This document shows, one piece after another, positions 681 to 23,063 of a stretch of 64,000 bases of DNA. The notes below the pieces were generated by a model. That model made no database searches and was not told the DNA's origin. It saw only the letters and a list, made by a program, of their open reading frames with translations. The stretch is from IMG/VR virus record IMGVR_UViG_3300003465_000003, positions 1-64,000 of that record, one strand, 5' to 3'. Source of the DNA: a virus. A program made the position numbers and the translations under genes. Numbering within the stretch: the stretch's first letter is position 1; each line of letters opens with the position of its first letter.

Positions 681-962
681 ATGCCAGATCCACATAAGCT
701 TGAACAAGTGTTACTTAACAGAGAAGCCAACCAGCAACGGGAGGCAGAGTTCAAGAAGTGGTACGCTGCTGTAGCTAAACAGCAAGGATTAGATCCAGAT
801 CCTGATAACCCACTCCACTTCTACGATTACAGAGCTGCACATAGGTCCGGCGCAATGCCCGATAAGGATGGTCACTGGCCATCAGAATTCAAGCGGGAAG
901 GACATCCTAGGCTTATTGTTAACGGCGTTAACACTAAAACTGGAGAACGGGTAATAAAGTAA
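681..962 (+). CDS. small protein with N-terminal DPxxLEQVLLxRE motif
   Basis: First gene after the terminator; FKKW...YDYR...GHWPSEFK...HP domain; N-terminus shared with 964..1467 and 22737..23063. Confidence 0.75.
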   Translation: MPDPHKLEQVLLNREANQQREAEFKKWYAAVAKQQGLDPDPDNPLHFYDYRAAHRSGAMPDKDGHWPSEFKREGHPRLIVNGVNTKTGERVIK

Positions 963-963
963 C

Positions 964-1467
964 ATGCCAGATCCTCAGCCCCTCGAACAAGTCTTGTTGC
1001 AGCGGGAAGCGGTCCAGAGGACTCGCAAGCACGAGGACCCGGCCGTGCAACGCGCACTAGACATCGCAGGGCAAGATCTGAATCCAGTTAAACTTGTAGA
1101 CCCCATGGAAGCGCAAGCCATCTACAGCAAGACTATAGACGCTAAGCCGTCCCCGAAACTCCAAGGATTCCGAGCACCACAAAGTACAGACCCCACGATA
1201 TACGTCAACAGGGAATCTAACGTTTACAAGAATGCGGCAAAGAATCCGAATAACAAACTTGCACAATTGTTATTAGCTTCCCTACTGATACACGAGCAGA
1301 CGCATGACGAGGGCAGCAGCGAATTGGTCCCACAAAGGTTTGAAGCCGACTTCCTACGGAGCAAGCGGGACATGATAGGCTGGCCGGACAAAGGCAAGTT
1401 GGACGAAATGGTAGCTTCCATAAACCGGTTCTTAGAGCCGTCAGTCAGCACAACAGGTAAGAAATAA
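964..1467 (+). CDS. putative zincin-like metallopeptidase with N-terminal DPxxLEQVLLxRE motif
   Basis: LLIHEQTH (HExxH) followed by a downstream Glu; starts 1 nt after the upstream stop. Confidence 0.6.
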   Translation: MPDPQPLEQVLLQREAVQRTRKHEDPAVQRALDIAGQDLNPVKLVDPMEAQAIYSKTIDAKPSPKLQGFRAPQSTDPTIYVNRESNVYKNAAKNPNNKLAQLLLASLLIHEQTHDEGSSELVPQRFEADFLRSKRDMIGWPDKGKLDEMVASINRFLEPSVSTTGKK

Positions 1468-1468
1468 G

Positions 1469-1672
1469 ATGGCCAAGAAAAAGTTATTGCAGGGCAAGAG
1501 CCCAGACGTTGTGGACGCGAATATCCGCATGCTAAAAGACAGTGGTTATTCCCACGCCAGAGCAGTCCGGTGCGCCTTGTGCCACGCCAACAAGAAGCAC
1601 GATAAACATGCCGCAGACGTTGCCAAGAAGGTTGTCAAAAAGGGTAAGGCAACCGAGATGAGATTTAAGTAA
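1469..1672 (+). CDS. small basic virion-associated protein
   Basis: GKSxxVVxANIRxLxxSG...AV pattern typical of small basic phage head-module proteins. Confidence 0.6.
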   Translation: MAKKKLLQGKSPDVVDANIRMLKDSGYSHARAVRCALCHANKKHDKHAADVAKKVVKKGKATEMRFK

Positions 1673-2322
1673 TGACACTCAATGAAATGACGTTACATAT
1701 CGCGGATGCTCTGAACCTCAGTAGCGCTGAAGCTAAAGCTCGCATTGCTCGTAACATTAATACCCGCTACAAGCGAGTAACTTCCGCTATTGGATTGGCT
1801 CCATCTCGTCGGGAAGAAGTCTCCAAAGTTGCTACCATCGGAAACCGCTATATTACCTTCTCCGGCGTAGAGAAGCTGGAGTCGGTTTACCGTAAGGTTG
1901 GAACCAAGCACATAATGTTGGACGAGATTACTCATGACGAGATGCTAGAGCTTAGCGTTAGAACTGAGCCACCAACCAAGTATGCAGTATTCTCCATAAC
2001 GCAGACTGGCATCACATTAATGATTGACTGTTCACCGACAACAGCTTTCACTTTATACGCCGCCAGCGTTGCAGACACAACTTCGTTGAGCAACAATGAC
2101 AGCCCCGCGTTCCCGGAGTCCTTCCACGACGTGCTTATCCACGGCGTCATGGCTGATGAATACAAGAAGATGGAAAAGCTTGATTACGCACGTGATTGCG
2201 AGCAGGATTACGAACGCCGTTTATCCGACCTACGCATGTTTCTAGCCAAGAGCGCATACTTGGAAATATATGCAGGGAAGAGGGCGAAGGCGGACGGTTG
2301 GTGGGACACGTCTGGGAGTTAG
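1672..2322 (+). CDS. head-to-tail adaptor (tail tubular protein A-like)
   Basis: MTLNEM start and C-terminal PxFPExFHDVLIHG motif; position ahead of the tail genes; TAATG coupling. Confidence 0.7.
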   Translation: MTLNEMTLHIADALNLSSAEAKARIARNINTRYKRVTSAIGLAPSRREEVSKVATIGNRYITFSGVEKLESVYRKVGTKHIMLDEITHDEMLELSVRTEPPTKYAVFSITQTGITLMIDCSPTTAFTLYAASVADTTSLSNNDSPAFPESFHDVLIHGVMADEYKKMEKLDYARDCEQDYERRLSDLRMFLAKSAYLEIYAGKRAKADGWWDTSGS

Positions 2323-2323
2323 C

Positions 2324-2560
2324 ATGGGGCAAACAGGTAAAGTCGGCAGCGTGGTAGAGATCAATGCGGTAGTCCGCCCACCATGCGTATGCGGCGAACC
2401 GTGGTCCAAGCACGGAGTATGCGGCGGATATCAACCCTCCGGCCCCGTTATCGATTACGGCACAGTTCACTTCCGCAGTAAGGATTGGTTGGCCAACGCA
2501 CTTTACACCGTAGAAAGTTTCATAAAAGGTCTACGCATTCGCAGAATGAGGAATAGGTAA
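2324..2560 (+). CDS. hypothetical protein
   Basis: ATG 1 nt after the adaptor stop; CxC...H...C; TAATG overlap with the next gene. Confidence 0.55.
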   Translation: MGQTGKVGSVVEINAVVRPPCVCGEPWSKHGVCGGYQPSGPVIDYGTVHFRSKDWLANALYTVESFIKGLRIRRMRNR

Positions 2561-2955
2561 TGCCTTTCGGGACAGATACAAAGATCACACACGGGGGCTC
2601 TGCAATTATAGCAGACCGCATCAAAAATACGCCCACTGTAGCCTCCCCACGCTGGGTCGGCATCGGCGTAGGCGCAACTGGCGCGGGTCGCACCGCCGCT
2701 AAAACTGATACAGGTTTAAGTACAGCTGCGGAATCAAGAGTAGAAGGCACGGAGTCCCGGGTTACCACAACAGAAACCAATGACACATATCAGGTCGTAG
2801 GCATTATCACTGCTACAGCGCCACGTGACGTTGATGAAGCTGGATTGTTTAATGCCTCCAGTGGTGGCACCATGTTCTTATCCGCGACATTCGCGGTTGT
2901 AGCGTTGGCTACAAATGACAGCCTTCAGCTCACTTGCAAGTGCCAGATAACATAA
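2560..2955 (+). CDS. tail structural protein (tail-collar/fibre attachment-like beta-sandwich)
   Basis: IGxG...AxxTDTxL...EAGLFNASSGGTM motif of phage tail-fibre-associated proteins. Confidence 0.65.
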   Translation: MPFGTDTKITHGGSAIIADRIKNTPTVASPRWVGIGVGATGAGRTAAKTDTGLSTAAESRVEGTESRVTTTETNDTYQVVGIITATAPRDVDEAGLFNASSGGTMFLSATFAVVALATNDSLQLTCKCQIT

Positions 2956-2956
2956 A

Positions 2957-3517
2957 ATGGCTAAATTAGGTCCGCCATTTGGTCGCATACCTTGGAACAA
3001 AGGATTAAAAGTAGGCGACAGAATTAGGAAAAATAAGCTTTACGCGGCGCGTAATTGCGTGTATTGTGACGCCGAGTTTTTCTGTTATCCATCCCAGAAT
3101 AAGCGTTACTGCTCACATAAGTGTAGAGCGCTTAAGACTAAGCCTTGGGAAAAGTTGCGTGGTAGAAAATTATCTACGCATCATAAAGAAAATTTGAGCA
3201 AAGCGCATATTGGTGTGCAATCTAAAGATAAACATCCGTTATGGAAGGGCGGACTCTATAAAACCGCTAGAGTAGAGGACATGGCCAACAACAATTACAA
3301 AAAGTGGCGTATAGCTGTGTTCAATAGAGACAATTTCACCTGTGTTGGTTGCGGACATGATAAATATGTGCAAGCGCATCACATCAAACCTTACGCTTCA
3401 CATCCAACACTGCGTTATACCGTAGAGAATGGGCAGACATTGTGTAAGCAGTGCCATTATATGCTGCATTTAGTAGCGGGGAATAAAAACACGGCAAGAG
3501 TAGAAATATGGCACTAA
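2957..3517 (+). CDS. HNH homing endonuclease with NUMOD3-like and Zn-finger motifs
   Basis: PWNKG; CxxC...YCSxxC; HKENLSKAH; RDNFTCxxC...HHIKP...NGQTLCxxCH. Confidence 0.9.
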   Translation: MAKLGPPFGRIPWNKGLKVGDRIRKNKLYAARNCVYCDAEFFCYPSQNKRYCSHKCRALKTKPWEKLRGRKLSTHHKENLSKAHIGVQSKDKHPLWKGGLYKTARVEDMANNNYKKWRIAVFNRDNFTCVGCGHDKYVQAHHIKPYASHPTLRYTVENGQTLCKQCHYMLHLVAGNKNTARVEIWH

Positions 3518-4692
3518 ACTGGGACGGCAAGAATAATTTCGCATATAGCGTTGTAGCGACTGCCCCGAGCCCTGCGGCTTCTGGCACGTCGCTTGTTGTG
3601 TCTGCGGGCGATGGAGCTAAGTTTCCTACACCGCCGTTTAACGCTGTCGTTTGGCCAACCGGCGTGCAGCCAACCACGGCTAATGCGGAAATTGTTCGTG
3701 TTACAGCAGTGGCTACTGACACATTTACAATTACACGTACACAGGAAGGAACTGCTGCCCGCACTATCCTTGTTAATGACCAGATCGCGTTAAACGTTAC
3801 AAAGAAAACATTAACGGACATTGAGGCCGCATTCGATACTGCCTCACAATTGACTACTCCAATCGGGTCAGTGTTAATGTGGTTAACAGGGTCCGCTCCA
3901 ACCGGTTGGTTATTAATGCAGGGCCAGGCTATAAGCCGCGCAACCTATTCTGCGCTATTCTCGTTGTGGGGAACTACATTTGGTGCTGGAGATGGTGCAA
4001 CAACGTTCAATATACCGGACATGCGAGCCCGCATTCCAATTGGACTTGGCACGTCTTCCCCGCTTAACGCGCTAGGAGCTACAACTGGTTCATGGGACCA
4101 TACACATGGGCCTGGAACTTTGGCAGTAGCTTCACACACTCATGGCGCAGGAACGTTATCCGTAGAAAGCCATACACATGGCCCAGGTACACTACAGGTA
4201 GCGTCACATACGCACGGGGCAGGCACCCTGACTGTAGCATCCCACGATCACGGTGCAGGAAGCTATGGTGCAGACAGCGGTGGATCGCATACCCATACGG
4301 GCACAACAGACAGCGCTGGTAACCATTCGCACACTGTAGGTTCTACATCGTCACCAGTCCAGAGCGGCTCTGGTAGCAACATTGTGGACTCGGTTGATGC
4401 TAATACCAGCTCAGGCGGCGCGCACACTCACGATTTCACTACTGGTAGTGGCGGCTCGCATACCCACACGGTATCCGGCACATCAAGTGGTAGTAGCCCT
4501 GCCGTAGACAGCGGCTTGACCGGAAGCACTGCGCCTCTTGTCAACGCGGGCGCTTCAGCAGGGACTGCCCCCGCTGTCACTGGCGGCGCAACTGGAGCCA
4601 CCGCGCCAGCAGTTGGCTCGGGCGTAACCGCAGCAGGCAACCCGCCGGTTCTTGTTGTAAACTTCATTGTTCGCGCTTTACGTGAGATCTAA
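3508..4692 (+). CDS. tail fibre with phage tail-collar domain and HxH needle
   Basis: PIGSV...APTGWLL..GQAISRATYSALF...GAGDGATTFNIPDMR collar domain; nine HxH motifs; C-terminal NPPxLVVNFIVR. Confidence 0.9.
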   Translation: MALNWDGKNNFAYSVVATAPSPAASGTSLVVSAGDGAKFPTPPFNAVVWPTGVQPTTANAEIVRVTAVATDTFTITRTQEGTAARTILVNDQIALNVTKKTLTDIEAAFDTASQLTTPIGSVLMWLTGSAPTGWLLMQGQAISRATYSALFSLWGTTFGAGDGATTFNIPDMRARIPIGLGTSSPLNALGATTGSWDHTHGPGTLAVASHTHGAGTLSVESHTHGPGTLQVASHTHGAGTLTVASHDHGAGSYGADSGGSHTHTGTTDSAGNHSHTVGSTSSPVQSGSGSNIVDSVDANTSSGGAHTHDFTTGSGGSHTHTVSGTSSGSSPAVDSGLTGSTAPLVNAGASAGTAPAVTGGATGATAPAVGSGVTAAGNPPVLVVNFIVRALREI

Positions 4693-5069
4693 TGTTAGGT
4701 TCTAATTACATTGGGCAGTTCTATTATGGTCAGGGGCCAGCGGTCGGATCTGGATTTACCACAAAAACTGTATCTGCCACAGCAATCGCGCTAGCGACCG
4801 TGAGCACTCAGGTACTCATCAATGCCAGTGTGGCGGCTACTGCAGTAGCTGTCGCCACAGTGCAACGCCAGGTAAACCGCACAGTTTCTGCCGTAGCTAT
4901 AGCGTTAGCCACGATATCCAGCGTATTCGTTGAGGCGCTCAATATACGGAATGCTTGGACCAAGTTCTTAACGACGACAAAGACAACACGCGGTATAAGC
5001 GGATTTAGCTATTCTAGTAAAGATCTAACAACAAAGAAAACCACTAGAGTCATTTTGGACGAAGAATAA
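4692..5069 (+). CDS. virion structural protein
   Basis: Ala/Val/Thr beta-repeat (VSATAIALATV x3); lies in the tail module. Confidence 0.6.
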   Translation: MLGSNYIGQFYYGQGPAVGSGFTTKTVSATAIALATVSTQVLINASVAATAVAVATVQRQVNRTVSAVAIALATISSVFVEALNIRNAWTKFLTTTKTTRGISGFSYSSKDLTTKKTTRVILDEE

Positions 5070-5071
5070 GC

Positions 5072-5392
5072 ATGGCAACATACGTAATCGTAGCTGGGAC
5101 TACCGCAGATTTGAACTTTCAGTTGTTAGACGCCGGGTCCCCAATAAACTTATTGGGGACTACGGTAACGCTTTTACTCTCGGATAGGACTGGTGCTACT
5201 GTAGCTTCTCCAGGAACAGTTAGTATCGTGGATTCAACCACGGGGAAAGTGAAGCTCGCCCCAACGGACGCCAATGTGTTCGTCTCAGCGAATGGGCCAT
5301 ACACGGCTCGTTGGAAGCTGACGGATGGAACTGGCAAGATTTCTTATGTTCCCACTGGACCGCGTGATATTTGGAGCATCGTAGGAGCGTAA
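5072..5392 (+). CDS. Ig-like/BppU-N-like tail protein
   Basis: GxT...L.D.G.PINLxGxTV...GKV...GxYxA pattern. Confidence 0.6.
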   Translation: MATYVIVAGTTADLNFQLLDAGSPINLLGTTVTLLLSDRTGATVASPGTVSIVDSTTGKVKLAPTDANVFVSANGPYTARWKLTDGTGKISYVPTGPRDIWSIVGA

Positions 5393-7410
5393 TGGCGCAG
5401 CCGGAGAATTTCGACCTTATCTCCCTACGTGGGGGTCTGGACGACACATCGCCATATATAGCGTTGGAGCCAGATGCCTGCGTATTAGCGGAAAATATAG
5501 AGTTTGTGAACTCTACGTTAGGAGAACGCAGAAAAGGTTGTACAGCGATCACGCTTCCATCTGACATTACTGGTAATAGTGCAATACAGGTTGTTACATG
5601 GATGTATCGGCATCTTCCAGTAAATGATGAGGGCGAAGCGGAGTTGTGGGTTCTGTCGCAGTCATTATCGACTAATGATAGTGTATTAGCGCGCAGGACC
5701 AAGACCGCATGGGAAACCATAGTTCCGGATAATGCTATCACAGTAACTGAGGCTCAAGGGCATCGTCTATCAGCGCAGACTCTGCACGGCAAATTGTTTA
5801 TTGCTTACAAGAGTTCTGTTGATAGGACACATGTCTTTGATGGCACATCGTTACGCAAAACTGGACTGGCACAGCCAGCCGCAGCCCCGTCAGTTGCTAA
5901 TACTGGGTCTGGAACATTTGCTACAACTAGGTATTACAGGGTTCGTTACGTAACGCTGAGTGGCAGCACAGTAACCCTGCGTTCTGAGCCTTCAGCTACG
6001 ACTACGTTTGCTCCATCTGGGTCCGGGTCCGCCGCACGGATCACAAAACCAGCGACCATTAATGAGAATGAGACACATTGGGAAGTAGAAGCATCCCTTA
6101 ATAACGCAGATTTCTACCGCATTGCGCGAGTGGTTGTCGGTACAACCACTTATGATGACTCAACTGCAGCGGCAACAGGATACGCTTCCGCCAACGTTTT
6201 ATCCGAAGATATTGGCGATTACTCTCTTATCCCATCAGGAAAGTTTTTGACTGCGGACCAAGACCGGTTAATTATAGCAGGTAGTTGGACCACGGCTGCA
6301 GAAGCGTCACGGGTCAGATGGACGCCAGTATTTGCAGGAACCGGCGCTGGCAACGATGAACGGTTAGAGTCAGATACCGACCCCTATCTGGATCTAGATG
6401 GTTATGAGGGCGGAGAAATAACTGGCATCAGCCGCGCGGTCAACGGTTACATCTACGTGTTCAAGCGTAGCCACATTTACCGCTTGGTACGTACGGGACA
6501 ACGTAGTAAAGCATATGAAGCGTTGCCTATCACCAAGGCGCGCGGTGCTATTATCGGCAGCTTAGTAGAAGCTATAAACCAGGTTGGGCAGCCATCACTT
6601 TACTTCTTAGACCCCTCAGTAGGCCCAACACGACTTAGTGCTAATGGTCTGCAGTGGTGTGGTCGAGACATCCAGACATTCTGGCGTCGGGTAAATGTGA
6701 ATGCCAAAGTTCCATGCCATGGTGTTTACTATAACGATAAACGTCAGCTACATTATTGGGTAGCCGTAGATGGCTCTGAGTATCCTAACGCCAAGATCAT
6801 TCTACATGTCAATGAAATGCGTGATACTGATGAGGGCGGTCGCAGGGGATGGGTCACGGTAGCCAAGGACAACCGTATTGCCACCGCGCATTGTTCATGT
6901 ATGTTCGCAAGCAATATTGATACAATGGACAAGAGGTCATTTGCGTTGGTCCCGTTTATTGGGAAGGAGCGCTGGACAGTAGGTGGTAGTACTATTAAAG
7001 ACTACATACAGCGTTGTGATACCGGCGGAACAGACGCGCATACATCTGGGGACACATCGTCAACTTACAGGGCCAAAGTAACGTCTAAGCCATTCGCGTT
7101 GGCTGGATTACTCAATCAGCATAAGGTCTTAGCGGGCGCGCTAGTTGCAAAAGCGGCCAGCTCACCAAATGGCGTGGTATTCGTTAAAGCCATACGCGAT
7201 TTTGGCAAGGAAGAAAAACAGGTCGCTGTGGAACTCTTCGTGGACAATAGCGCAGAAACGCACGTTATCAAACAATTAGATGACTTAAATTTCGCTGAGC
7301 TTTATACCATGCAGATTTCGCTAGGTGACCTGGATGACACTATTACCCCACCTGACACGTGGGAACTTCACAGATTGCAACTTAAGATTGGGAAGGGTTC
7401 AACCGCCTAA
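5392..7410 (+). CDS. tail nozzle / head-closure protein (P22 gp10 / tail tubular protein B-like)
   Basis: LRGGL...ENIEF...RRKG N-terminus; beta-propeller-like composition; TAATG start at 5392. Confidence 0.7.
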   Translation: MAQPENFDLISLRGGLDDTSPYIALEPDACVLAENIEFVNSTLGERRKGCTAITLPSDITGNSAIQVVTWMYRHLPVNDEGEAELWVLSQSLSTNDSVLARRTKTAWETIVPDNAITVTEAQGHRLSAQTLHGKLFIAYKSSVDRTHVFDGTSLRKTGLAQPAAAPSVANTGSGTFATTRYYRVRYVTLSGSTVTLRSEPSATTTFAPSGSGSAARITKPATINENETHWEVEASLNNADFYRIARVVVGTTTYDDSTAAATGYASANVLSEDIGDYSLIPSGKFLTADQDRLIIAGSWTTAAEASRVRWTPVFAGTGAGNDERLESDTDPYLDLDGYEGGEITGISRAVNGYIYVFKRSHIYRLVRTGQRSKAYEALPITKARGAIIGSLVEAINQVGQPSLYFLDPSVGPTRLSANGLQWCGRDIQTFWRRVNVNAKVPCHGVYYNDKRQLHYWVAVDGSEYPNAKIILHVNEMRDTDEGGRRGWVTVAKDNRIATAHCSCMFASNIDTMDKRSFALVPFIGKERWTVGGSTIKDYIQRCDTGGTDAHTSGDTSSTYRAKVTSKPFALAGLLNQHKVLAGALVAKAASSPNGVVFVKAIRDFGKEEKQVAVELFVDNSAETHVIKQLDDLNFAELYTMQISLGDLDDTITPPDTWELHRLQLKIGKGSTA

Positions 7411-10202
7411 TGTTTGGACTAGTAGGTAGAGGCGAGTTACCAAGAGTAACAGAAGACGAATTTGAGCAACTTAACTCACGTCTGAAGGCTCTTTGGCTTG
7501 TCGAGCACAACGAAGATGGCACACATGACATGGATGCTTCTGGCATCACGTCTGGAGTGTTGGAGCGGGAGCGCATACCGACCAGTGTCCTAAGCGGCTT
7601 GACTAACGTTGCTGAATACGGGGCGGTGGGAGATGGTGTAACCGATGATACGCTCGCGCTTATAAATGCTATAGCTTCTGGTAAATCGCTGGATTTCGGC
7701 AACGCGACCAAAACATATCGTGTAACGTCCAAGCTCACGTTCAACAAGTCCGGCGTGACCTACGCTGGATTTGGGGCGACAATTTTATATGATTTCCCTC
7801 AGTCAAGTTCTTCGGTGACTGGCAGGCTAGCGGATATCACTGGGTCCCGAACATTGTTCTTCGGGCTCATCTTTAGCGGCAATGCCAAGCAGGTAAAGGC
7901 AACATTACTATATATTGATGATAATGCTACGGAACCAAAGTTCTTCAACTGCAGATTCACCAATATTGCAGGGGTCCACGTTAATAACGAAACGAACGGC
8001 GACTCCAACATGCAGTATGCCATTATTATAAGTCCTTATGGAGTTCGTAACTTTGTGTTTCATGCTTGTGAATTTGACACGATAACAAATCGCAATAACA
8101 ACGTTGGAGTGGCGCAGCTCGAGGGACTAGGGTTTTGTGGTGCCTTATTTATTGGCATCCGTAGCGATTTAGGTAGTCCAACAGATCACCAGACCGTACC
8201 AACATCTGGGGTTATCTCTAGTTGTGACTTCCGCGATATTTACACTATCTTAGCCAATGGATTAACTACAAATCAGCGAGCAAGTTATGACGACGCAGAT
8301 GGTATAAGATTCTATGGATGGGTGTGGGACGTTGTCGCAGTAAGTGCTAGCAGCAACTGGTTCGAGATTTCAGGGAACTATACTTCAAAGTTTCCTAACA
8401 ACCAGGTATTCCGCACACGAATGACCACTGGAAACGATGGATCGTGGACTGTATCTTCAAGTAGTTATGATGGTGGGACGAATAGGACCCGTATCACAGT
8501 AACTGGAGATATTACCAGTGACGTGGCAGACGGTTGGGTTTTGGGTGCTTCTGATCTACCCATAGATATTGTAAACTGCAATTTCCGTGGGGTGTCAAAA
8601 CGTGCAATCAAAGGAAGCGTTAGCCATTTTGTGAATGTTAGGGACTGCTTCATTGATGGTTCGCAGCGCGATTACCCAATGGTAACCGCGATAAAGGCGG
8701 AGTACGGTTGGACAATAGAAAATGTCAAGATGTTAACAACCGCTGACAAAGCGTTTGATAAGGCATTCCAGACACACGATGTGTCACATCTAAGGATCAA
8801 TAATATTTATTGTTCCCATGTTGTTGATTTCTTCAATTTTGCGCCAACTGTTACAACCAACACGCTTTCAAATATTTCTATTGAAAATATCACTTGTCCT
8901 TATATAACAAGTAGTGGGTTTTCAAGTAGCACATCAGTTAAGGCTATTAAGTCTAGCAGATTCTGTAAAATGCGGCTGGTATCTGCGCCTAGCACACATG
9001 GAATGGCAGCGCTCAGCAACTTCTCTACCACAACCGATTATAACGAATCATATATTGGGGACATAGAGATCGTTAATGGAGAGTTGAAGGTTATCGGCAC
9101 GCAGTCAACAATTGATGACGTGCGGATAACTCTAGATGATGCGTCTTACACTGGCTCTAGTTCAGCAAGGGCATTAGTAGAAGTTACAGGCACACCAGGT
9201 ATTACTATCCCAGCGGCTCCAACCGCAGCAGATGGCGGCGGTGCTGGAACGGTAACCGGTCAGCGGTGGTATAAGGTTGCCTATACGGCTGGAACTAGGC
9301 GCTCAGATTTGTCAGCAGCGCTCGCGCACACTCCTGGTGGCGCAAATGCTGCAGTAGTAGTTACTAAGCCAGCAGCTATCGGACCCGAAACTCACTGGGA
9401 ATTGTATGCTGCTGGAGCGGCAACGGGGCCATTCAAGTTGATTGCGACTACGGTTGTAGGAACCACTACGTATAATGATGCAGTGAGCGGGACGCCGCCT
9501 GTCTATTCAGGTAATGCGGCCCCGCAATTAACGTGGAATCGTATCCGCAATTTGCGTGTAGATATCGTCAACTGCCCAAGCACGTATCTTAATGCTACCC
9601 GCACCAATTTGATCTGGTTATCTGGGGACAGGTTGGAAATTGATGGCATACGGCTGTTAGTCCCAGCGGAATTAAGCACGACACAGCCGCATATCACCAT
9701 ATATGGCCACTATATTGTTGCATCCAATATAGATTATTGGGGGGCTGGTTGGGTTAGCTGGATGTATGACAACGTATTTACACCAAAGTTTGAGGGATGC
9801 GTTCTGCGGAACTTCTCCAGGCTTGGCGGTAGAGCATCCACACTGTCTCCAATCTATTCCAGGCATGCTGCTAGGACCATATTGCAGAATATCTTCGATG
9901 ATTGCACGGGGGCAGCAGCGGTATTCGATATTACGGGTTCAGCGGCTGGTCAAAAGTATCATGTGCAGAACGTGGTTACCAACTCTACGGCAGACCCGAT
10001 TATCGTGGGTGGCGGACTGACTGGTATGCAGAACATCGCTAGGCACGGCAATGCTGACTATCTCACATTGACTAATGATGGAACAAAACCAGCGGTCATA
10101 AGTGGTGTAGTATCCATATATACTGAGACCAGTGGTGGTACTGATTATCTTAGAGCCCAATTCCCAAGTGGGACCACTAAGGACTTGGCTACGGACCCAT
10201 AA
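7410..10202 (+). CDS. tailspike with right-handed beta-helix (pectate-lyase-3-like)
   Basis: EHNEDGTH anchor; NVAEYGAVGDGVTDDTLALINAI motif; repeated NCxF/I.NI beta-helix rungs. Confidence 0.85.
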   Translation: MFGLVGRGELPRVTEDEFEQLNSRLKALWLVEHNEDGTHDMDASGITSGVLERERIPTSVLSGLTNVAEYGAVGDGVTDDTLALINAIASGKSLDFGNATKTYRVTSKLTFNKSGVTYAGFGATILYDFPQSSSSVTGRLADITGSRTLFFGLIFSGNAKQVKATLLYIDDNATEPKFFNCRFTNIAGVHVNNETNGDSNMQYAIIISPYGVRNFVFHACEFDTITNRNNNVGVAQLEGLGFCGALFIGIRSDLGSPTDHQTVPTSGVISSCDFRDIYTILANGLTTNQRASYDDADGIRFYGWVWDVVAVSASSNWFEISGNYTSKFPNNQVFRTRMTTGNDGSWTVSSSSYDGGTNRTRITVTGDITSDVADGWVLGASDLPIDIVNCNFRGVSKRAIKGSVSHFVNVRDCFIDGSQRDYPMVTAIKAEYGWTIENVKMLTTADKAFDKAFQTHDVSHLRINNIYCSHVVDFFNFAPTVTTNTLSNISIENITCPYITSSGFSSSTSVKAIKSSRFCKMRLVSAPSTHGMAALSNFSTTTDYNESYIGDIEIVNGELKVIGTQSTIDDVRITLDDASYTGSSSARALVEVTGTPGITIPAAPTAADGGGAGTVTGQRWYKVAYTAGTRRSDLSAALAHTPGGANAAVVVTKPAAIGPETHWELYAAGAATGPFKLIATTVVGTTTYNDAVSGTPPVYSGNAAPQLTWNRIRNLRVDIVNCPSTYLNATRTNLIWLSGDRLEIDGIRLLVPAELSTTQPHITIYGHYIVASNIDYWGAGWVSWMYDNVFTPKFEGCVLRNFSRLGGRASTLSPIYSRHAARTILQNIFDDCTGAAAVFDITGSAAGQKYHVQNVVTNSTADPIIVGGGLTGMQNIARHGNADYLTLTNDGTKPAVISGVVSIYTETSGGTDYLRAQFPSGTTKDLATDP

Positions 10203-10711
10203 TGCCTGATATTGTTGACGAGATTATACGACGAGAGGGCGGGGCAACGGAGACTAACGATCCGGATGACAGCGGTGGGCGTACCAAATATGGTATTAGT
10301 GAACGCGCACACCCAGAGGCTTGGGCAGACGGGGATGTTAGTTACGATGAGGCCAGAACGATATATGAGAAGGTCTATATCCTAGATGAAAAGTTTCATC
10401 TTATCCCAGATGAGAAGTTAAAACATCAAGTTATAGACTTTGGAGTTCCATCTGGACCAGATCGCGCTGCCCGTCTTCTACAACAGGTTTTAGGTGTTCC
10501 AGTTGATGGGTCTATAGGACCTAAGACATTGGAAGCCATAAAGAACTACCCCAGTGGGAAATTGTTTGGGATAGATGTTCCCGGTATCGTATTGCTAAAT
10601 TTAGCGTTCAGAGATGCTAGAGAAATTTACTACGCTGCTCTAGCCAAACGTAGACCCAAGGATCTTAAGTATTTGGTTGGTTGGCTCAGACGAGCACAGG
10701 AGTTCAAATAG
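10202..10711 (+). CDS. glycoside hydrolase family 108 lysozyme with PG-binding C-terminus
   Basis: REGG...NDPDDSGGRTKYGIS; LQQVLGVPVDGSIGPKTL; GWLRR. Confidence 0.92.
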   Translation: MPDIVDEIIRREGGATETNDPDDSGGRTKYGISERAHPEAWADGDVSYDEARTIYEKVYILDEKFHLIPDEKLKHQVIDFGVPSGPDRAARLLQQVLGVPVDGSIGPKTLEAIKNYPSGKLFGIDVPGIVLLNLAFRDAREIYYAALAKRRPKDLKYLVGWLRRAQEFK

Positions 10712-12429: not shown

Positions 12430-13331
12430 TGCGAAGACAAGCAAGGTTCCAGGATTTTGGTCCTGATCAAATAGCGCAGACATCTGATCCCTTTTATGGG
12501 GGAGGCTCTACCGGAACTCCGGAGGCCTCCTTACAATGGGCTCAGTCCGAGTTTGACGCCGGTAGACCCATCAATAATAAAGTTTACAATGTCAAGGATG
12601 GGAAGGTGTCTTTTACTAACGCTTTCAATCCCGGTATTACATGGAAGGATGCTGCACCGGCACTGATGGCTGCTGGCGGTTTGGGGATCGGGGCGCTAAT
12701 GGGAACTGGTATAGGGGCTGGAACAGCCGGTAGCGCAGCGGCTGGCGGCAGTGGAATAAACGCGGCGCCTTTAACCCCCATGACTAGGGATATCGCGGCT
12801 CCACTTATTGGAGCGAAAGCGCCTACAGTTGGTGGTGCCGCAGCAGGGGCTGCAAAAGGCGGCGGCTTCTTATCTAATCTTATGAAACCTAATAATTTAA
12901 TTGATATTGGTAAGGGGATTAGTTCCATAGGACAGTCACAGGCAAGCAATCGTGGTGTTGCACTTGACGCTCAGATGGAAGCGGATAAGATGCGCATGGC
13001 GCAGGATCAGCAGCGTCGTGACGACGAGGCCCATATCTGGAAGATGCTGCAGGCCGTTAATTACATCAAGGGCGGTGGAGCGCCGAAGTCTGGACCTGTA
13101 ATGAGTGCTTCTGGCAAGCCATTCACATCCTATGATTTTGGTCCTAGGGCAATTAATCAGGGCGACAAGGATATGGCGACTACGCTGGAAGCACAGTTGT
13201 TGAAACGGTTGCAGACAGTGCCACAGTTGCGGAATTACGACTCCAAGATGAAGCCAGGCAAGGTCGAGAAAGCAACCAACTGGCTAGGACCATTGCTGGG
13301 TATCGGCGGAATGTTGTTTGGTAAAAGGTAA
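12429..13331 (+). CDS. putative DNA ejection protein
   Basis: Gly/Ala-rich hydrophobic segments as in P22 gp7-like pilot proteins; TAATG coupling. Confidence 0.55.
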   Translation: MRRQARFQDFGPDQIAQTSDPFYGGGSTGTPEASLQWAQSEFDAGRPINNKVYNVKDGKVSFTNAFNPGITWKDAAPALMAAGGLGIGALMGTGIGAGTAGSAAAGGSGINAAPLTPMTRDIAAPLIGAKAPTVGGAAAGAAKGGGFLSNLMKPNNLIDIGKGISSIGQSQASNRGVALDAQMEADKMRMAQDQQRRDDEAHIWKMLQAVNYIKGGGAPKSGPVMSASGKPFTSYDFGPRAINQGDKDMATTLEAQLLKRLQTVPQLRNYDSKMKPGKVEKATNWLGPLLGIGGMLFGKR

Positions 13332-13336
13332 ATAAG

Positions 13337-14572
13337 ATGCCAAGATTTGATTTCCAGTCACCGGGGGCCGCGTTCGTAGATACGTTGACACGTGTGCTTG
13401 CTGAGCGCAAGGCTGAGGAGCGGCAGCAGATGCTGGACCGGCTTACACAGGCGGCAGAAGAGCGAGCTAACCGTGAGTCGCTGGACCGTAAGGCGTACCA
13501 GGACGCGCAGGTCAAGAATATGCAGCATAACCAGACGTTGGCCGACGCGGCTGAATCCCGAGCGAAAGAACAGCACGGTATGTCGATGGACGCCAACAGA
13601 CTAGCGTTTCTTGAGCGTGGTATGGAACCAGATACACCATTCTTTGGCGTGGAGAAGTCGCCAGAGGACTTAGCGTTATTGCAACGCGCAGGGGTTCTGA
13701 AAGCTATGCCCCCTCCACCAGACGCGCCAAATGTGGATAACACCCTTCCGGGGACCAGGATTTCTGCGCAACCGACCAGTTATCAGTATATTGGTTCTCC
13801 AGAGCATAGAGCAAAAACGCGGGAAAGAAATGAGCGCGGAGCCGCTATTGCAAAACTATTGCAGAACCCTGAGGTTGCAGGCTCAATTGGTAGTGGGCCG
13901 GGAGCAATGCTATCTAGTATCGTAGAATCTGGTGGTGATCCAACATCCGCCATGACTCAGTTGATCCCGCATACAATGCCGGGTCAAGAGGCTATGGTGT
14001 TTGATGAAGCCTCTGGCAAGTTTAATAAGGGGCCGATGGTTAAGCCGGGTCAAACGATTATACAGCGTAGCAGACCGCCACAGCAGCCAGCAAGCGCTAC
14101 TAGAAATGACTTAATTGGGTGGAACAACGAGGGCAATCCAATGTTCCAGCGCCCAGACAATAGTATCTATACAGATACCTCTGTCAAGGGTGGAAACCGG
14201 GATATGACTGATGATCCAATAAGGATCCCTGAGCAGACAAAGACTGCGCATCGCAGACTATTCGCAATGGTTCAACCACGCGAAACAGGTATGTGGGGCT
14301 TCCGTAGAATGTCTCCACCTGAACAGACCGATATAGATATGTTTAAGCAGGCTGCTATCACCTTAATTGAGAGCGCAGACCGCGTGCCCAGTAAAGTAAG
14401 ACAGGCTGCCATCGACTTTGTGCAAACAGGTGACTTATCAAGAGCATCTAACTGGATGGCGCAGCAAAGGTTCACTGATAACGAGGTTGCATTAACCAAC
14501 CGTTTAATCAATATCGCATTGCCTCCGGATTGGGAGACTATACTCAATCCACCTAAGCAGGACAATAAGTAA
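13337..14572 (+). CDS. putative DNA ejection protein
   Basis: Charged coiled-coil N-terminus; syntenic position. Confidence 0.5.
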   Translation: MPRFDFQSPGAAFVDTLTRVLAERKAEERQQMLDRLTQAAEERANRESLDRKAYQDAQVKNMQHNQTLADAAESRAKEQHGMSMDANRLAFLERGMEPDTPFFGVEKSPEDLALLQRAGVLKAMPPPPDAPNVDNTLPGTRISAQPTSYQYIGSPEHRAKTRERNERGAAIAKLLQNPEVAGSIGSGPGAMLSSIVESGGDPTSAMTQLIPHTMPGQEAMVFDEASGKFNKGPMVKPGQTIIQRSRPPQQPASATRNDLIGWNNEGNPMFQRPDNSIYTDTSVKGGNRDMTDDPIRIPEQTKTAHRRLFAMVQPRETGMWGFRRMSPPEQTDIDMFKQAAITLIESADRVPSKVRQAAIDFVQTGDLSRASNWMAQQRFTDNEVALTNRLINIALPPDWETILNPPKQDNK

Positions 14573-17500
14573 TGCCACAGGATAGCAAAAGCAGAGCAGA
14601 AGAAATAGAGCGGATGTTGCGTGCAAGCAGGGGTTCTACAAGTATCAGGACTTCTGTTCCAATACAAGACGAGGACGAAGAGACGCAGCCAGAACGTCGT
14701 TATAGGGGCGCTTTGGGTCGTGGCGGAGCTCTAGTTACTAGGATACTTGGTGGTATCGCTAGTGGTGTTGTTGGTGCTGTGCCGTCTATGGTAACAACCC
14801 CATCAGCTATGGGTATCGGAGCGTTTACCGAGGGCTTGGCGCAGAAGATGGAGTCACCGGACCCAATTGATAAGGGTAGGGTCGCACTAGAGTCTGGATT
14901 AGCCGCGATACCACTGGGCAAGGTTTACAAGTTGGGTAAGCCAATAATCACTAATATGCTGCGCGGTGCCGCAGTCGCTGAGGGTGGGCACATGGCACGG
15001 CGTATGTATGATACTGGCGATCCGCTGCCGGATAACGCGGATGACGCTAAGTGGGATGCGATCAATATTGGTTTGGGTGCATTAGGCGGAGCTATGGGTC
15101 ATAGGACCTTAAAGAATAAGCTGGATACGCCTCCGGCCCCAAAACCGCAGCGTGCGACTGTAGGCCCAGATGGTGTTAGACGTATTACGGCTACGCCACA
15201 GGAAACTGCCCGTAGTACTGCGCGCGTGTCACCTGATGACAATGTAGACCCAGCATTTATGGAGTCTGCAGCTAAGTCGGTATTGACCCCTGTTGGGAAA
15301 CGGCTGATTGACGCCGATAAGGCTAGAATCGCGCGTGAGGCGGAGCTGCGTACTGAGGTTATCAAACCGCCAGTGCTTAATCCGAAGGGCGAACCTGGGA
15401 AAGTTCTGCAGGTTACCGGTGGGCAGCGTGGAGCGCATGTTGGTGGCAAGGCTAATGATATAGATGGCGATTATCTTGATACAATACTGTATCGCCGTAC
15501 TCGGGATACTGGTGAAACGACAGAAGCAACTGAGACAGCGTTACGCAACTTAGAGACAGCAGGCACTACCGGTAAGCGCTCTTCTTATCGAGGATTGCGC
15601 CTGCGCACGTCTCAGCAAGCCGCCGAACAAAACTCCAAGAACCTCAATGCTGGGGATGATTTTGTAGAGAAAGCCATTAAGGATCGTGCAGCGGAACGCG
15701 CGCAGGAAAAAGCCGCTTCAGAGATACAAGAAGCGAAAAAGGGCCTGGAGCCTAACCCACCGTCTGTTACTGAGACGGTTAAGGAAACTACGCCTACAGG
15801 TGCTAATGTTCTCCGTAAGACGTTTACAGCCAAAGCTGATGATGCTGCGGATGAGGGCGGCAAAGGTGCGGGCAAAGGACCAAAGGATTTGGAACCAACT
15901 GCGCCAGCAGATGCTCCGATCAAGCCGCTAGATCCGAAAATCGCAGTGACAATGGGCTTTACCACACGCGAGAAGGCACTTGAGCACATTGCTATGACTG
16001 GCAGACGTGGTTATCCAGCAAGCACAGGTTCCGGTAGATACAAGTGGCGTATCGTTTTAGAGAATGTTGCGGAAGAGACGCCAACACCAAAACCTGTTAC
16101 ACCAGAAACCCCAGCAGCGCCAAAGACTCCAGAAGCAGCGCCAAAAGCTGGAGAGCCAACCCCCACGCCTAAGGCTCCGCCTGTTCCCGAGCAGCCTACG
16201 GCAGCAGCAGAGAATGTGTTCCCAACATGGATCAAGGCTCGTCATTACGCTAAGAAAACTGGTGGTACTGTTGTAAAGACCAAGGACGGTAAGTTCAAGG
16301 TTAACCCACCAGATGACACGACTCCGGGCGGGAGCGGTGGAACTCCGCCTCCAGCGGGTCCTGCACCGGCTCCTGTAAGACCAAAGCGTGGGCCTAAGGG
16401 TCCAGCGGGTGGGGCGCAGGCAAGCGCGGTTCCGCCAGCGGTAGTTGGAGCGCGTAGCACAGGAAACAGTTCTGTTGATGCTAGATTGAGGCGTCAGGCA
16501 GCAAGGGCGGCGGCGAAGCCTGTTCCGGCTCCTGTCGCACCAGAAGCACCCGCTCCGATTCCAGCAGCGCCTGTTCGTAAGACTCCTGTTGATATGAAGA
16601 AGCGGGAGATTGATGCAGTTACGCGAGAAGAGGTTAAGAACTGGACACCGGAAGAGCTGCAGAGCGCGCTGGCCAAGTGGCCTAATGATAAGCGTCTTAC
16701 AACAATCATTAATGATGAATTGAAGTTTAGGCAGGGCGCTGCTGGAAACGCGAAGCCCGCAGAAGCGCCACAACCTCCAAAAGTTGGTTCAGTTGGGGAA
16801 ACTCCTAATGATTGGGCAGCTAAGCACCCAGTTGGGTCTACGATTCACGCGTATGGTAGTGAGGGCACGGTCTTAACTCATGGGCCATCTGGTGTTAGGG
16901 TAAAGTTTACCAAGGGTCGGATGGCCAAGGAGCAAGGGGCTAACGGATACTTTGATGTTGACCCCAACCATATAAATACGACCATTGTTCCACCAGCAAA
17001 ACCCGCTGCGGTAAAAGCGGGTGATACTGCGGCTCCCGCTGTAACCGAAAAGCGATCTGATGCTTATGCGGCTTTGCAACGCACTGGAACTGCGCGCAGT
17101 GACGAGACCAATACTACAGTTAAATTGTTGCGGGATGCACCAGATGCGCCATATAAGATCGAAGTTGTAAGAGCTGGTAACCGCGTGGTTATAGGCACTC
17201 AGACAAAAGATCAGGACGACGCTATCGGATTCGCCATAAATGAATTGTTTAGATTTCCTGACAAGACAAGTCCTGTTCTAAAGGCTGCGCCAGTTTCTAA
17301 ATCTAAAACACCGGAAGCTCCAACAACTGCGCAAGTTGTGGAGAAGGCACATGGTAAGGAAGTCATTGTAGACCTTGCTGGCGTAAAGACGCCTAAGGAC
17401 GTAGTAGGCCGAATTTTAGACGTTCTGCGTAAATACAAGGATGAAGTAGATGAGGCCGGTCCCGCTTACCAGATGGTTGAAGGCGGGAAGAGGGTAGACC

Positions 17501-20040: not shown

Positions 20041-20120
20041 AGAGGTAGCAAGAAAATACGCTCCTAGGTCATTGTAGCGGCTCTGGAGCGCCTTTTAATG
20101 CGCGTTTCGGAGTCACTATC

Positions 20121-20315
20121 ATGTTAGAGGGAATTGTGGGAGTTCTTGGAACAGGGTTATTGGCAGTTGTTGGATGGGCATTCAATCTTCAGAGCCGTGT
20201 GGCGGTTATGGAGGCCAATTATGCTAGCCTTGAGAAGTTATTGGAAGCTAAGTTAGACCCTATAAACCAGCGCTTAGAGCGTATTGAACGATATTTGAAT
20301 GGACATTTAGGCTAA
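20121..20315 (+). CDS. holin-like small membrane protein
   Basis: One N-terminal TM helix followed by a coiled coil (RVAVME...RLERIE). Confidence 0.5.
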   Translation: MLEGIVGVLGTGLLAVVGWAFNLQSRVAVMEANYASLEKLLEAKLDPINQRLERIERYLNGHLG

Positions 20316-20328
20316 ATTGTGTTACAAT
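20300..20328 (+). promoter_or_regulatory. sigma70-type promoter
   Basis: TGGACA-17 nt-TACAAT with extended -10 TG; AAGGAG RBS before the ATG at 20373. Confidence 0.6.
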
Positions 20329-20372
20329 AGTCTATTTATTGTGCGCAATACAACTTAGCTAAGGAGAATTAC

Positions 20373-20828
20373 ATGGCACTGCGACTAGGTGGAAGTAAGG
20401 GGAAAGAGAAGGATAAGGAGCCAAAGGAGAAGGCAGAGAAGAAAGAGGCTCCAGCGAAGGAACCAGCTATGGAAATGTCTATGGACGCCCCTATGCCAAT
20501 GATGGAGGGCGCTCCAGAAGATATGCCTATGGATCAAGGCATGGGCATGGAGATGGCCCCTCCGATGGGTGTCGTTGACCCCATGATTGCTGGTTATAAA
20601 GGTCCTGAAATGGGACCGTTTATGTGCGCCAACTGTCAGTTTTATGCTCCAAATGATGAACCTGGAACATGCCAGATAGTTGCAGGGCAGATTGACGAGC
20701 AGGGGTTATGCAATATGTTTAGTCCCATGCAAATGCCAGCCGAAGAGATGCCCATGGGTGAAGAGCCCATGCCAGAGGAAGCGCCATTACCAGCCGAGGA
20801 ACCGCCAGTAGAAGCCCCAGGAGTTTAA
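20373..20828 (+). CDS. Met/Pro-rich protein with HiPIP-like four-Cys domain
   Basis: CANCQFY...GTCQIVAGQIDEQGLCNMF. Confidence 0.6.
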   Translation: MALRLGGSKGKEKDKEPKEKAEKKEAPAKEPAMEMSMDAPMPMMEGAPEDMPMDQGMGMEMAPPMGVVDPMIAGYKGPEMGPFMCANCQFYAPNDEPGTCQIVAGQIDEQGLCNMFSPMQMPAEEMPMGEEPMPEEAPLPAEEPPVEAPGV

Positions 20829-20830
20829 CG

Positions 20831-21277
20831 ATGAAAAGAGCACAACTTGCAATAGTATTAACCATTTGTCTGAACGCGGGTTGTGCTCTGTTATATCCAC
20901 CACGGGATGTTATTGGTGTTAATCCTGAGCCAAGGCAGCCTTCTAAAGAACGGATCGCTGAATTGGCTGCCGTTTCTGTTGATACCAAGTATAAGGAAGC
21001 CCCGTTTGCTTTATCCTTCTACCCACAAGTTACGCTACCCGGTGGTAGTGTAAGGGTCACGTGCCATGTCCCGCCTAGTTGGGGCGCAGAGGCTATAGCA
21101 GTTAAGGGATTTCAAGGTAAGTTGGCCTATATGACACCAATGTACCTTTACGAACCGCGTGTTGTTGAGGGTGTTATCTGTGGGCAGAACGAGACTGTTT
21201 GCCGGGTGATGCTACCGTCTGGTCACGTCAAAGAAATAAGTAACGTTATGGAAGTTCCCTGTCCAGAGGATCGGTAA
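20831..21277 (+). CDS. putative lipoprotein
   Basis: MKR + hydrophobic stretch + AGC lipobox-like site. Confidence 0.5.
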   Translation: MKRAQLAIVLTICLNAGCALLYPPRDVIGVNPEPRQPSKERIAELAAVSVDTKYKEAPFALSFYPQVTLPGGSVRVTCHVPPSWGAEAIAVKGFQGKLAYMTPMYLYEPRVVEGVICGQNETVCRVMLPSGHVKEISNVMEVPCPEDR

Positions 21278-22206
21278 TGCCACAAGAGTTAGAATTAGTA
21301 AAGAAACCTAAGGGTTTAGAATTGCCAGCCAACGCCCCGCCAAGTAAGCGCGGGGATTCCCCAGTGTTGGATTTCATCAGCGGGTTCCTCAGTGGTCCGG
21401 ACCTATTTAGTCCTTCCACGGAACGTCCGCCTATGGACGCCCAGACCATTGGGGAGCTTTTATCAATGGGGTCGGTTGGAAGTTTGCGTAAGATCCCGCA
21501 AGTTGCGGGGCAGCTTGATAACGTCATTGACGCGGGAAAGCGCGTGGCTCCTAAGAGGGCTGCATTGGAGTTGGCCAAATTATTAGAAGGGCGCTCAGAG
21601 CGTGTCCCTCATGTTAGAACACCATATAACTGGACGGAGGAAGATGCTGTAAGGGAGGCATTACAAACCAGCCGTGTTACAAGCCAGAGCAGGCCGCCTA
21701 AGCCTACCCAGATACGCGTAGATAAGGGGCCTTACCTTAAGCCCACACAGGTGACATTAAGCAGGGACCCATTGTTACAGCAATTGTATCGGCGGTTTGC
21801 TACATGGGCAGGGAAAAAAGCTGTTAGGGACCCTGACTATTATGATAGCAAGTATATTAGCCAATATATTGATCCTCCTAAAAATACGATTATCGGGCCA
21901 GAAAGGCCATTCGCCACCATGGGTCGTGTAAGTGGTGAAAGTGTTCAGGAGGCGTTAACAAGGAAGAAGCCTGATATCACCAAACCGTCACCCATGACCA
22001 AGGTCTTAACTATAAGCGAGATGCGGAGTTTGGTAGAAGGTCCTAAGCGGGCATTACGCATGGGCGGGATATCCTCAGAAGAGGCGAATCGTTTAATCAA
22101 GATTGGGCGTAGAAAGATTGATGATTACCTCAATACATTACAACAACTTGACAAAGAGCGGCAATTAGAACAGTTGCGGAAGGCTATGCCAAATGAATTC
22201 AAGTAA
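21277..22206 (+). CDS. hypothetical protein
   Basis: 309-aa ORF with GAGGA RBS and TAATG coupling. Confidence 0.7.
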   Translation: MPQELELVKKPKGLELPANAPPSKRGDSPVLDFISGFLSGPDLFSPSTERPPMDAQTIGELLSMGSVGSLRKIPQVAGQLDNVIDAGKRVAPKRAALELAKLLEGRSERVPHVRTPYNWTEEDAVREALQTSRVTSQSRPPKPTQIRVDKGPYLKPTQVTLSRDPLLQQLYRRFATWAGKKAVRDPDYYDSKYISQYIDPPKNTIIGPERPFATMGRVSGESVQEALTRKKPDITKPSPMTKVLTISEMRSLVEGPKRALRMGGISSEEANRLIKIGRRKIDDYLNTLQQLDKERQLEQLRKAMPNEFK

Positions 22207-22756
22207 TACTAAACCTGATACCAATATGGATGCGGCGATCCAGAAGTTGCAAATGACGCAGCTTTCCCCATTGGAAGAGGCGCTGTTCCAGTCATGGGCC
22301 ATGGCGAACCAGATTGAAGATACCGATCAAGAGGGGAGCCAAGTAGATCTACGAGGGATATACAAGGCTTCCAGTGGGAAGGTTCTGCCTTTTGGAGAAC
22401 TGAAGCGTATCGTGGATGGTGTTAATAACGAGCGGACGTTAGAGGGTGTTTTGCGCGAACGTGCTATGAATGGCGATGAGGCACAACTGCGAATGAAGCA
22501 GGAAGAGCATGCCATGAAGATGCAGGAGAAGCAGGAAGACCGGATGCTCAAGCGTCAGTGGCAAATGGAAGACCGTGAAGAGAAGCGTCAGCAGCAGCAG
22601 GTCGATAGGCAGATGAAGTTGCAGCAGCAGTTGGAGGACAGGCAGATGCGGCTCCAGCAGCAAGCGCAGGATAGGGCTATTAACCAACAGTATCAGGCTG
22701 AAGACCGGGCTATAAAACAGGCGCAAGGAGCTGAAAGTGGGACAAGATCCGCATAA
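22193..22756 (+). CDS. hypothetical protein with Gln-rich QxEDR repeats; N-domain resembles 681..962
   Basis: EALFQSW...VDLRG compared with EAEFKKW...YDYRA; 11-aa periodic EDR/VDR/QDR repeats. Confidence 0.7.
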   Translation: MNSSNTKPDTNMDAAIQKLQMTQLSPLEEALFQSWAMANQIEDTDQEGSQVDLRGIYKASSGKVLPFGELKRIVDGVNNERTLEGVLRERAMNGDEAQLRMKQEEHAMKMQEKQEDRMLKRQWQMEDREEKRQQQQVDRQMKLQQQLEDRQMRLQQQAQDRAINQQYQAEDRAIKQAQGAESGTRSA

Positions 22757-23063
22757 CTTGGAAAGAATTCTGCTGCAGCGCGAGATGGGTAAAGGGGAGC
22801 CTGCGCCAACTCCCAAAGAGTTTCCTGCTGAAAAAGAATGGCGTAGGCAAGTCTGGCAAGTGCGCGAAGAGACCTTCATGCGAAATCGGGACGCAGAAAG
22901 ACGCGACAAAGAGGAACTGGCTACAGGTAAAATCAGCAAGGAAGAGTTTGACCGCAGGGACCAGGATAGACACTTGAAGCACGTAACTACAGATTACACT
23001 TCATTGGTGCCTAACAAGGTTCATGGTAAAGGTTCAGATGTTAAGCTGCCGGGGAAAAAGTAA
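22737..23063 (+). CDS. small charged protein with N-terminal DPHNLERILLQRE motif
   Basis: AAGGAG RBS + GTG; shared N-terminal motif. Confidence 0.75.
   Translation: MGQDPHNLERILLQREMGKGEPAPTPKEFPAEKEWRRQVWQVREETFMRNRDAERRDKEELATGKISKEEFDRRDQDRHLKHVTTDYTSLVPNKVHGKGSDVKLPGKK

Follow-up and report, generated by a model that had tools for sequence, protein, structure and literature searches.

Why three proteins with unrelated bodies, encoded by a single phage, should begin with the same short peptide is the question raised by the DNA analysed here, a stretch of 64,000 nucleotides (nt; hereafter the window) that forms the first 64 kb of a 99,793-bp IMG/VR virus record from an uncultured, podovirus-like soil phage, whose own genome is designated G000 and whose host is probably a soil bacterium, possibly one of the Acidobacteriota. 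The proteins are encoded on the + strand by the open reading frames (ORFs) ORF681 (681–962, 93 amino acids (aa)), ORF964 (964–1467, 167 aa), and ORF22737 (22737–23063, 108 aa), with N-termini reading MPDPHKLEQVLLNRE, MPDPQPLEQVLLQRE, and GQDPHNLERILLQRE respectively, the last from a GTG start. The shared peptide, termed the tag, occupies nt 687–725, 970–1008, and 22746–22784, and is followed by a small conserved domain in ORF681, a zincin-like HExxH domain in ORF964, and a charged helical body in ORF22737. Its 13–15 residues conform to the consensus M-x-D-P-x-x-L-E-Q-V-L-L-x-R-E. Comparison of its copies within and between genomes points to a functional, portable peptide, for which selection is well supported. 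As to its role, we favour, at slightly less than an even chance, a docking helix that brings accessory proteins to the procapsid or to a complex of internal proteins, with the binding partner, encapsidation, ejection, and cleavage forming the inferred parts of this reading.

The shared peptide and its conservation

The N-termini were read exactly as quoted in the original prediction, which had proposed a shared tag of the DPxxLExVLLxRE type, with the pattern DP..LE..LL.RE matching three times in six-frame translations of both the window and the entire record, and each time at the start of an ORF. In an all-against-all BLOSUM62 comparison of the N-terminal 13-mers of 197 ORFs, the trio scored 47–52, the next pair 43, and the remainder no higher than 37. 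Pairwise BLASTP of the three proteins gives alignments confined to the tag, in keeping with the claim that their bodies are unrelated and with no sign of homology over their full length. Within each pair 9–10 of the 13 tag residues are identical, with 6 of these specified by different codons, as had been stated of the conserved residues, and nucleotide identity across the tag is 23–25 of 39 positions. A degenerate DNA pattern for the exact tag returned no matches in IMG/VR besides the phage's own record.

A DNA-level or mRNA-level element is ruled out by the differences between tag copies at synonymous sites, and a signal peptide by hydropathy, since the tag is hydrophilic and no 19-residue segment of the three proteins exceeds a value of 0.54. 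The GH108 lysozyme-like protein ORF10202 has a similar-looking first helix, MPDIVDEIIRREGG, which scores low against the tag profile and is presumably the ordinary first helix of the GH108 family. The only other high-scoring N-terminal pair, that with a score of 43, comprises adjacent small paralogues of 66 and 71 aa (46956–47397, − strand), which share an N-terminal M-L-K-W/T..L-A-T-P-P stretch.

Conservation was examined in the complete genomes of two relatives, G001 (98.6 kb) and G002 (97.2 kb), the capsid proteins being 67–71% identical. Each genome was scanned with a 9-residue leave-one-genome-out profile built without its own sequences, with a score of at least 8 taken as a match and ~0.5 chance matches expected per genome. 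The scan of G000 returns exactly the three tags (19.8–26.0), with a next best score of 5.8. Four matches are found in G001, three of them in neighbouring genes at 4684–6198 (17.4, 14.6, and 9.2) and the fourth, regarded as chance, in an AAA ATPase (84739). G002 likewise gives four matches (8.6–10.0), all within 67278–72904, in proteins of 781, 329, 65, and 147 aa. These further tag-like N-termini cluster in the block of genes that follows a giant protein. A relaxed regular expression applied across all fetched loci finds tags in G001 only. Each of the three large genomes encodes one or more small HExxH proteins whose start resembles the tag, with the tagged HExxH protein of G001 that lies between the orf3 homologue and the adaptor (see below) beginning M-P-L-T-P-L-E-Q-Q-I-L.

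Orthologues were also found to conserve the motif, as evident in the G001 counterparts and in two further proteins, P0003 and P0007. The first, a 57% identical orthologue of ORF964 encoded on a 95.5-kb contig, starts M-F-A-D-P-L-A-L-E-Q-V-M-L-E-R-D, and the second, a 58% identical orthologue of ORF681, has S-P-L-E-H-I-L-M-R-D.

The tagged proteins and the origin of the tag

None of the three tagged proteins matches a family in PHROGs or Pfam, ORF964 included. Sixty representatives of the ORF964 family were collected, and in 42 sequences H110, E111, and H114 never vary and E120 almost never does. The AlphaFold2 model of ORF964 has a predicted local distance difference test score (pLDDT) of 90.8, with a well-modelled core from about residue 20 and the tag forming a short helix at residues 7–12 (pLDDT ~71–77). 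Fold matches to this model are weak, comprising selecase, jannalysin, YbeY, and the HExxH domain of ChlB (Foldseek E ~0.1; VIA Z ≤6.6). From the motif and these matches we infer that the body is a zincin-like HExxH putative metallopeptidase.

Many members of the ORF964 family begin with the same type of helix, M-x-D-x-L-E-Q-E-L-L-K-R-E, and a profile trained only on the tags of the phage clade finds the tag in 8 representatives, whilst at least 16 others carry a signal-peptide or transmembrane (TM)-like N-terminus in its place. One such signal-bearing member is located on a 279-kb contig of an Acidobacteriota metagenome-assembled genome. As many members carry the tag and others an export-type N-terminus, the tag is native to this family, where it replaces an export signal. 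In P0049, a two-domain homologue with a signal-peptide-like start, a tag-like stretch lies between the domains. The family was not found in IMG/VR, and three loci each from the genome and metagenome collections were uninformative for context. ORF964 could represent an enzyme that is exported elsewhere but has shed its export signal in the phage, and delivery from the virion could still bring it to the envelope.

The native association of the tag with HExxH proteins underlies the main rival to a docking role, namely that the zincin-like HExxH proteins of the phage itself recognise or cleave the tag, or have it as their pro-segment. In that case ORF964 would process its own N-terminus, and would bind the remaining tagged proteins, or cut them, at the conserved R-[E/D/N] where a small or hydrophobic residue comes next. 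The recurrence of a tag-like start on at least one small HExxH protein in each of the three large genomes is consistent with this, as is the position of a second HExxH gene of G000, ORF23063 (23063–23671, + strand), directly 3′ of the tagged ORF22737, with its start overlapping the ORF22737 stop. In most tags a terminal R-[EDNA] precedes A, M, V, L, I, or Q, an ending that suits proteolysis since zincins usually prefer a hydrophobic residue after the cut, and the search for proteases produced no other candidate. However, catalysis is suggested only by the motif and the weak fold matches, and HExxH proteins can hardly be aligned between the three genomes. The proposed cut site is variable among the G002 tags, and the linkage is seen in three genomes only. 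The untagged, 202-aa ORF23063 product itself shows weak similarity to the tagged HExxH protein that occupies the corresponding position in G002, and matches the ORF964 family at the HExxH helix only. On balance we consider a recognition or cleavage site unlikely as the function of the tag, and note that proteolytic recognition and particle loading could both hold, by analogy with the capsid-targeting sequence (CTS) of phage T4, which is an address and a cut site at once.

The body of ORF681 follows the pattern FxxWY..DPDPDNP..YDYRAA..GHWPSEFK..GHP. Its AlphaFold2 model (pLDDT 92.8) places the tag at the start of a single long helix spanning residues 4–35, and a fold search found no match in the PDB, the ESM Atlas giving nothing useful either; tblastn against cultured phages similarly found no match. 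The domain is nevertheless widespread, with 19 proteins recovered by protein search and 72 viral loci in IMG/VR, in most of which it forms the N-terminal, or sometimes an internal, domain of proteins of 900–2550 aa, one of them carrying a RadC/JAB domain. Three of these loci were examined, and all are structural modules in which the domain lies beside the phrog_511 “internal virion protein” and virion structural proteins. The 1822-aa giant protein of G000 lacks the domain. A tag-like start is present in 1 of 18 ORF681 relatives (P0007) and in few of the 72 viral loci, and is absent from nearly all others.

Many giant proteins that begin with this domain (among L036–L107, for example L094, L095, L100, L090, L056, and L088) contain, within the 20–80 residues that precede it, two to three tandem copies of a short peptide, such as D-L-G-F (three copies), V-x-F-[IV]-E (three), I-R-S-x-F-E-S-V-G-S (two), G-L-D-P-E-R-F (two), and D-I-R-L-P (two). 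The peptide varies from phage to phage, and these repeats look like multivalent short linear motifs.

ORF22737 is preceded by a good ribosome-binding site, AAGGAG, and is an orphan, with no homologue among 5.8 billion proteins; its sole relative is a 62-aa ORF in G001, in which the tag is kept. Overlapping its start is ORF22193 (22193–22756, + strand, 187 aa), a core gene of the clade encoding a divergent ORF681-like domain, an internal tag-like stretch (nt 22439–22465), and a charged tail. The hhalign match between ORF22193 and the ORF681 family is weak, and their kinship is accepted only because the G002 orthologue of ORF22193 is clearly ORF681-like.

These families also bear on the proposal that the tag is a historical by-product, in which an ORF964-like 5′ end was duplicated onto neighbouring genes and serves no common function. 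Local duplication would have been easy given that ORF681 abuts ORF964 (stop 962, start 964), and a tag native to the ORF964 family provides an obvious source. We nonetheless regard this as very unlikely, with synonymous sites having diverged whilst residues were kept, the tag persisting on ORF681-type and ORF22737-type proteins of other genomes at ≤58% identity, and tag-like N-termini recurring on different bodies in G001 and G002. Selection on the peptide rather than recent duplication of DNA, as first proposed from the codons, is thus further supported by the unrelated bodies, the conservation among orthologues, and the untagged homologues of two of the bodies.

Late gene context and proposed particle loading

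The first 27 kb of the window (+ strand) continue a late structural operon that begins at the end of the record, where, outside the window, G000 encodes the large terminase (89384–90835), a portal-sized gene of 681 aa (90841–92886), an acidic putative scaffold of 370 aa named by position alone (95034–96146), the major head protein (96527–97471; phrog_9953), and a virion structural protein (98203–98670). The window opens with orf3 (3–575), ORF681, ORF964, ORF1469, and an SU10-type head-to-tail adaptor (1672–2322, + strand; PF24175, 29.2 bits against a cut-off of 27), and as the adaptor marks the boundary, the tagged pair lies between the head genes and the tail genes. Downstream of the adaptor are genes for a tail fibre, a phrog_511 “internal virion protein”, a pectate-lyase-like spike, and a lysozyme-like protein, then for proteins of 582, 310, and 411 aa and the 1822-aa protein, and finally small genes in a block that extends to the DNA polymerase exonuclease at 26099. 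All tag carriers are encoded on this late structural strand, with ORF22737 downstream of the 1822-aa protein. The region from orf3 to the adaptor varies between relatives, and in L006 (capsid protein 82% identical) the homologues of orf3 and ORF1469 are directly adjacent, which identifies ORF681 and ORF964 as accessory genes.

Tag-like stretches also occur within proteins of this operon. With a profile of all tags, the best score outside the trio (15.0) falls at residues 17–25 of ORF13337 (13337–14572, + strand; stretch at nt 13385–13411), the 411-aa core protein just upstream of the 1822-aa protein, and residues 83–91 of ORF22193 score 9.2, so that the weaker echoes reported for these two proteins are real as weak profile matches. 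When the profile is built without G000, the non-trio ranking is headed by ORF12399 (12399–13331, + strand, 310 aa), in which the stretch lies near the C-terminus (nt 13185–13211), with ORF13337 second; ORF10681 is also among the best G000 matches after the trio. The stretch in ORF13337 is conserved in its G001 and G002 orthologues, and a position like that in ORF12399 also scores in G003 and G004.

A further resemblance involves the putative scaffold, which in every relative, down to 26% identity, bears L-E-[DEQ]-[VI]-I at the N-terminus and again at the C-terminus. When 170,965 windows were scored with a profile of the first nine tag residues, the N-terminus of the L006 scaffold, M-S-D-P-V-D-L-E-Q-V-I, ranked at the top. 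In the scaffold of G000 (95034–96146) and the homologues in L005–L025 the motif extends to L-E-[DEQ]-[VI]-I-x-E/S at both extreme termini.

Taken together, these observations fit the loading of tagged proteins into the particle, owing to the position of the tagged genes in the late operon, the location of two of them in a variable region, the types of body that are tagged, the presence of tag-like stretches in core proteins beside the giant one, the lead offered by the scaffold, and the precedents of T4 and P1. The 13–15-residue N-terminal helix would act as a portable docking peptide. Native to one branch of a small family of zincin-like HExxH proteins, in which it extends the N-terminus, it would have been copied onto other late proteins in this phage lineage and kept there by selection on the peptide. 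During assembly it would bind one shared partner, possibly the putative scaffold, the inner shell, or the internal (ejection) protein complex, with the tagged accessory proteins thereby enclosed in the procapsid and later released into the next host cell. A more specific version is doubtful, namely that a podovirus-like phage without a recognisable head protease loads a changeable set of accessory proteins, among them a zincin with export signals on its homologues elsewhere, by means of a helix that mimics a terminal binding motif of the scaffold and internal proteins, this helix being derived from the zincin family and maybe cut by that zincin.

Several observations weigh against loading. The placement of the tagged proteins in the virion is predicted from gene position in the late structural strand, and the phage has no cultured relative among those searched, with a megablast of 12 kb finding no match among cultured phages and the best capsid-protein match in the phage collection being ~30% identical. 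N-terminal tags are absent from the more distant 50-kb relatives, and no N-terminal peptide is shared within a locus across the 72 ORF681-domain loci, so tag sharing is not a general property of that family. A terminator-like hairpin with a T run (612–651, + strand) between orf3 and ORF681 implies that the ORF681/ORF964 pair may be expressed independently of the head genes. Searches of the genome with PF03420, PF04586, and PF00574 gave no match that would indicate a prohead protease, with that for PF03420 uninformative because it matched no control genome either. The likeness to the scaffold extends over just the first half of the tag and had been noticed before it was compared, the tags are not recovered by profiles built from the scaffold termini, and the putative scaffold has no PHROG or PDB match; the likeness is therefore a lead only. 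The internal tag-like copies of ORF22193, ORF12399, and P0049 suggest that a free N-terminus is not always required. Finally, the block after the giant protein contains lysis-type genes, which in G000 encode a TM protein and a lipoprotein-like one and in both G001 and G002 encode endolysins.

The last two points could be accommodated if the helix docks to some other shared partner unrelated to loading. The tagged proteins might hetero-oligomerise with one another, or the helix might bind a chaperone, a host factor, or a component of the lysis machinery or envelope. Such an interaction would suit a short, amphipathic helix that, as here, is predicted to stand out from the body. It would also suit the charged helical stretches that follow the tag-like helices of ORF22737, ORF22193, and ORF13337, and the holin-like, lipoprotein-like, and endolysin genes of the block. 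On the other hand, no candidate partner emerged, the tagged bodies lack TM segments, and ORF681 and ORF964 are located at the head-tail junction, far from the lysis-type genes, making a partner of this kind rather improbable. The alternatives to loading are retained because a zincin-like family has the tag as its own, similar stretches lie within proteins, and the block includes lysis-type genes.

The block itself includes, at 20121–21277 and before ORF22737, ORF20121, with one TM helix and a coiled coil, ORF20373, which is rich in Met, Pro, and Glu and has a Cys motif weakly matching HIPIP (21.5 bits against a cut-off of 22), and ORF20831, with a lipoprotein-like signal; these may be lysis or envelope-acting genes. 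The lysozyme-like protein (10202–10711; phrog_315) is encoded within the putative internal-protein gene run rather than beside the holin-like gene, and may be a virion-associated wall hydrolase. Directly 5′ of ORF681, and including its ATG, is a 24-nt element, GCCCATTTAGRGCCTAACTGTATG (660–683), a second copy of which (96% identical) precedes the start of a minus-strand ORF 61 kb away (61783–61806, − strand); the element may be a shared promoter or translation-start cassette. An HNH endonuclease gene (2957–3517) lies among the structural genes, and an endonuclease VII gene (G000 97535–98023) directly follows that of the major head protein, with both likely to be homing elements since their positions differ between relatives.

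Comparison with known cargo-loading systems

Short N-terminal peptides are known to direct proteins into phage heads. In T4 the CTS directs internal proteins into the capsid (PMC3012670), and foreign proteins are reported to enter the head when given nothing more than this sequence (PMC3012670; Mullaney and Black 1996, as cited in PMC9024508). In P1, the first 30 residues of DarB similarly direct this large ejected antirestriction protein, as well as a reporter, into the capsid, with no known cut (PMC9024508).

Similar to the CTS of the T4 proteins IPI–III and Alt, a peptide of ~10–15 aa found at the N-terminus of unrelated, fast-changing accessory proteins made late in infection, the tag occurs on several unrelated proteins of one phage, three in G000 and more in G001 and G002, and also ends in Glu. 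The two sequences are unrelated, however, and whilst the T4 CTS is cut by the prohead protease gp21 (Peptidase_S77), no such family was found here. The analogy with T4 drawn in the original prediction is thus reasonable with regard to the unrelated bodies and the late structural strand, but its proposal of cleavage after Glu is unsupported, since no prohead protease family was found. Further differences from T4 are the podovirus-like nature of the phage, with its SU10-type adaptor, the origin of the tag in a zincin family's own N-terminus, and a loading role that is putative. P1 DarB, like the tagged proteins, carries its signal at the N-terminus, but that signal is described for one protein and bears no sequence similarity to the tag.

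Encapsulin cargo-loading peptides and the C-terminal coat-binding helix of the P22 scaffold are short helices that bind the inner face of an HK97-fold shell and bring in fused proteins, and peptides of this type are mostly C-terminal. Such a mechanism would fit the way in which the tag partly resembles the termini of the putative scaffold, although profiles trained on the scaffold fail to retrieve the tags. A parallel may also be drawn with polyvalent or giant internal virion proteins (e.g. those with RadC/JAB domains), which are thought to be packaged and delivered to the host, since in many viral contigs proteins of this type start with the ORF681 domain; here, in contrast, the domain stands alone in a 93-aa protein with an added tag.

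How short-tailed phages select the accessory proteins carried inside the particle is poorly understood outside T4 and P1. If the tag is a loading label, the delivered proteins of an uncultured soil phage lineage could be listed from sequence alone, and the tag would provide a minimal means of loading foreign proteins into a simple shell. Mimicry of the scaffold, if true, would show that labels of this type can originate as copies of an assembly contact, whereas recognition by the HExxH proteins would define a new set of phage protease substrates. Among the systems compared, the tag probably belongs, by analogy, with the kind of label represented by the T4 CTS and the N-terminus of P1 DarB, achieved with an unrelated sequence.

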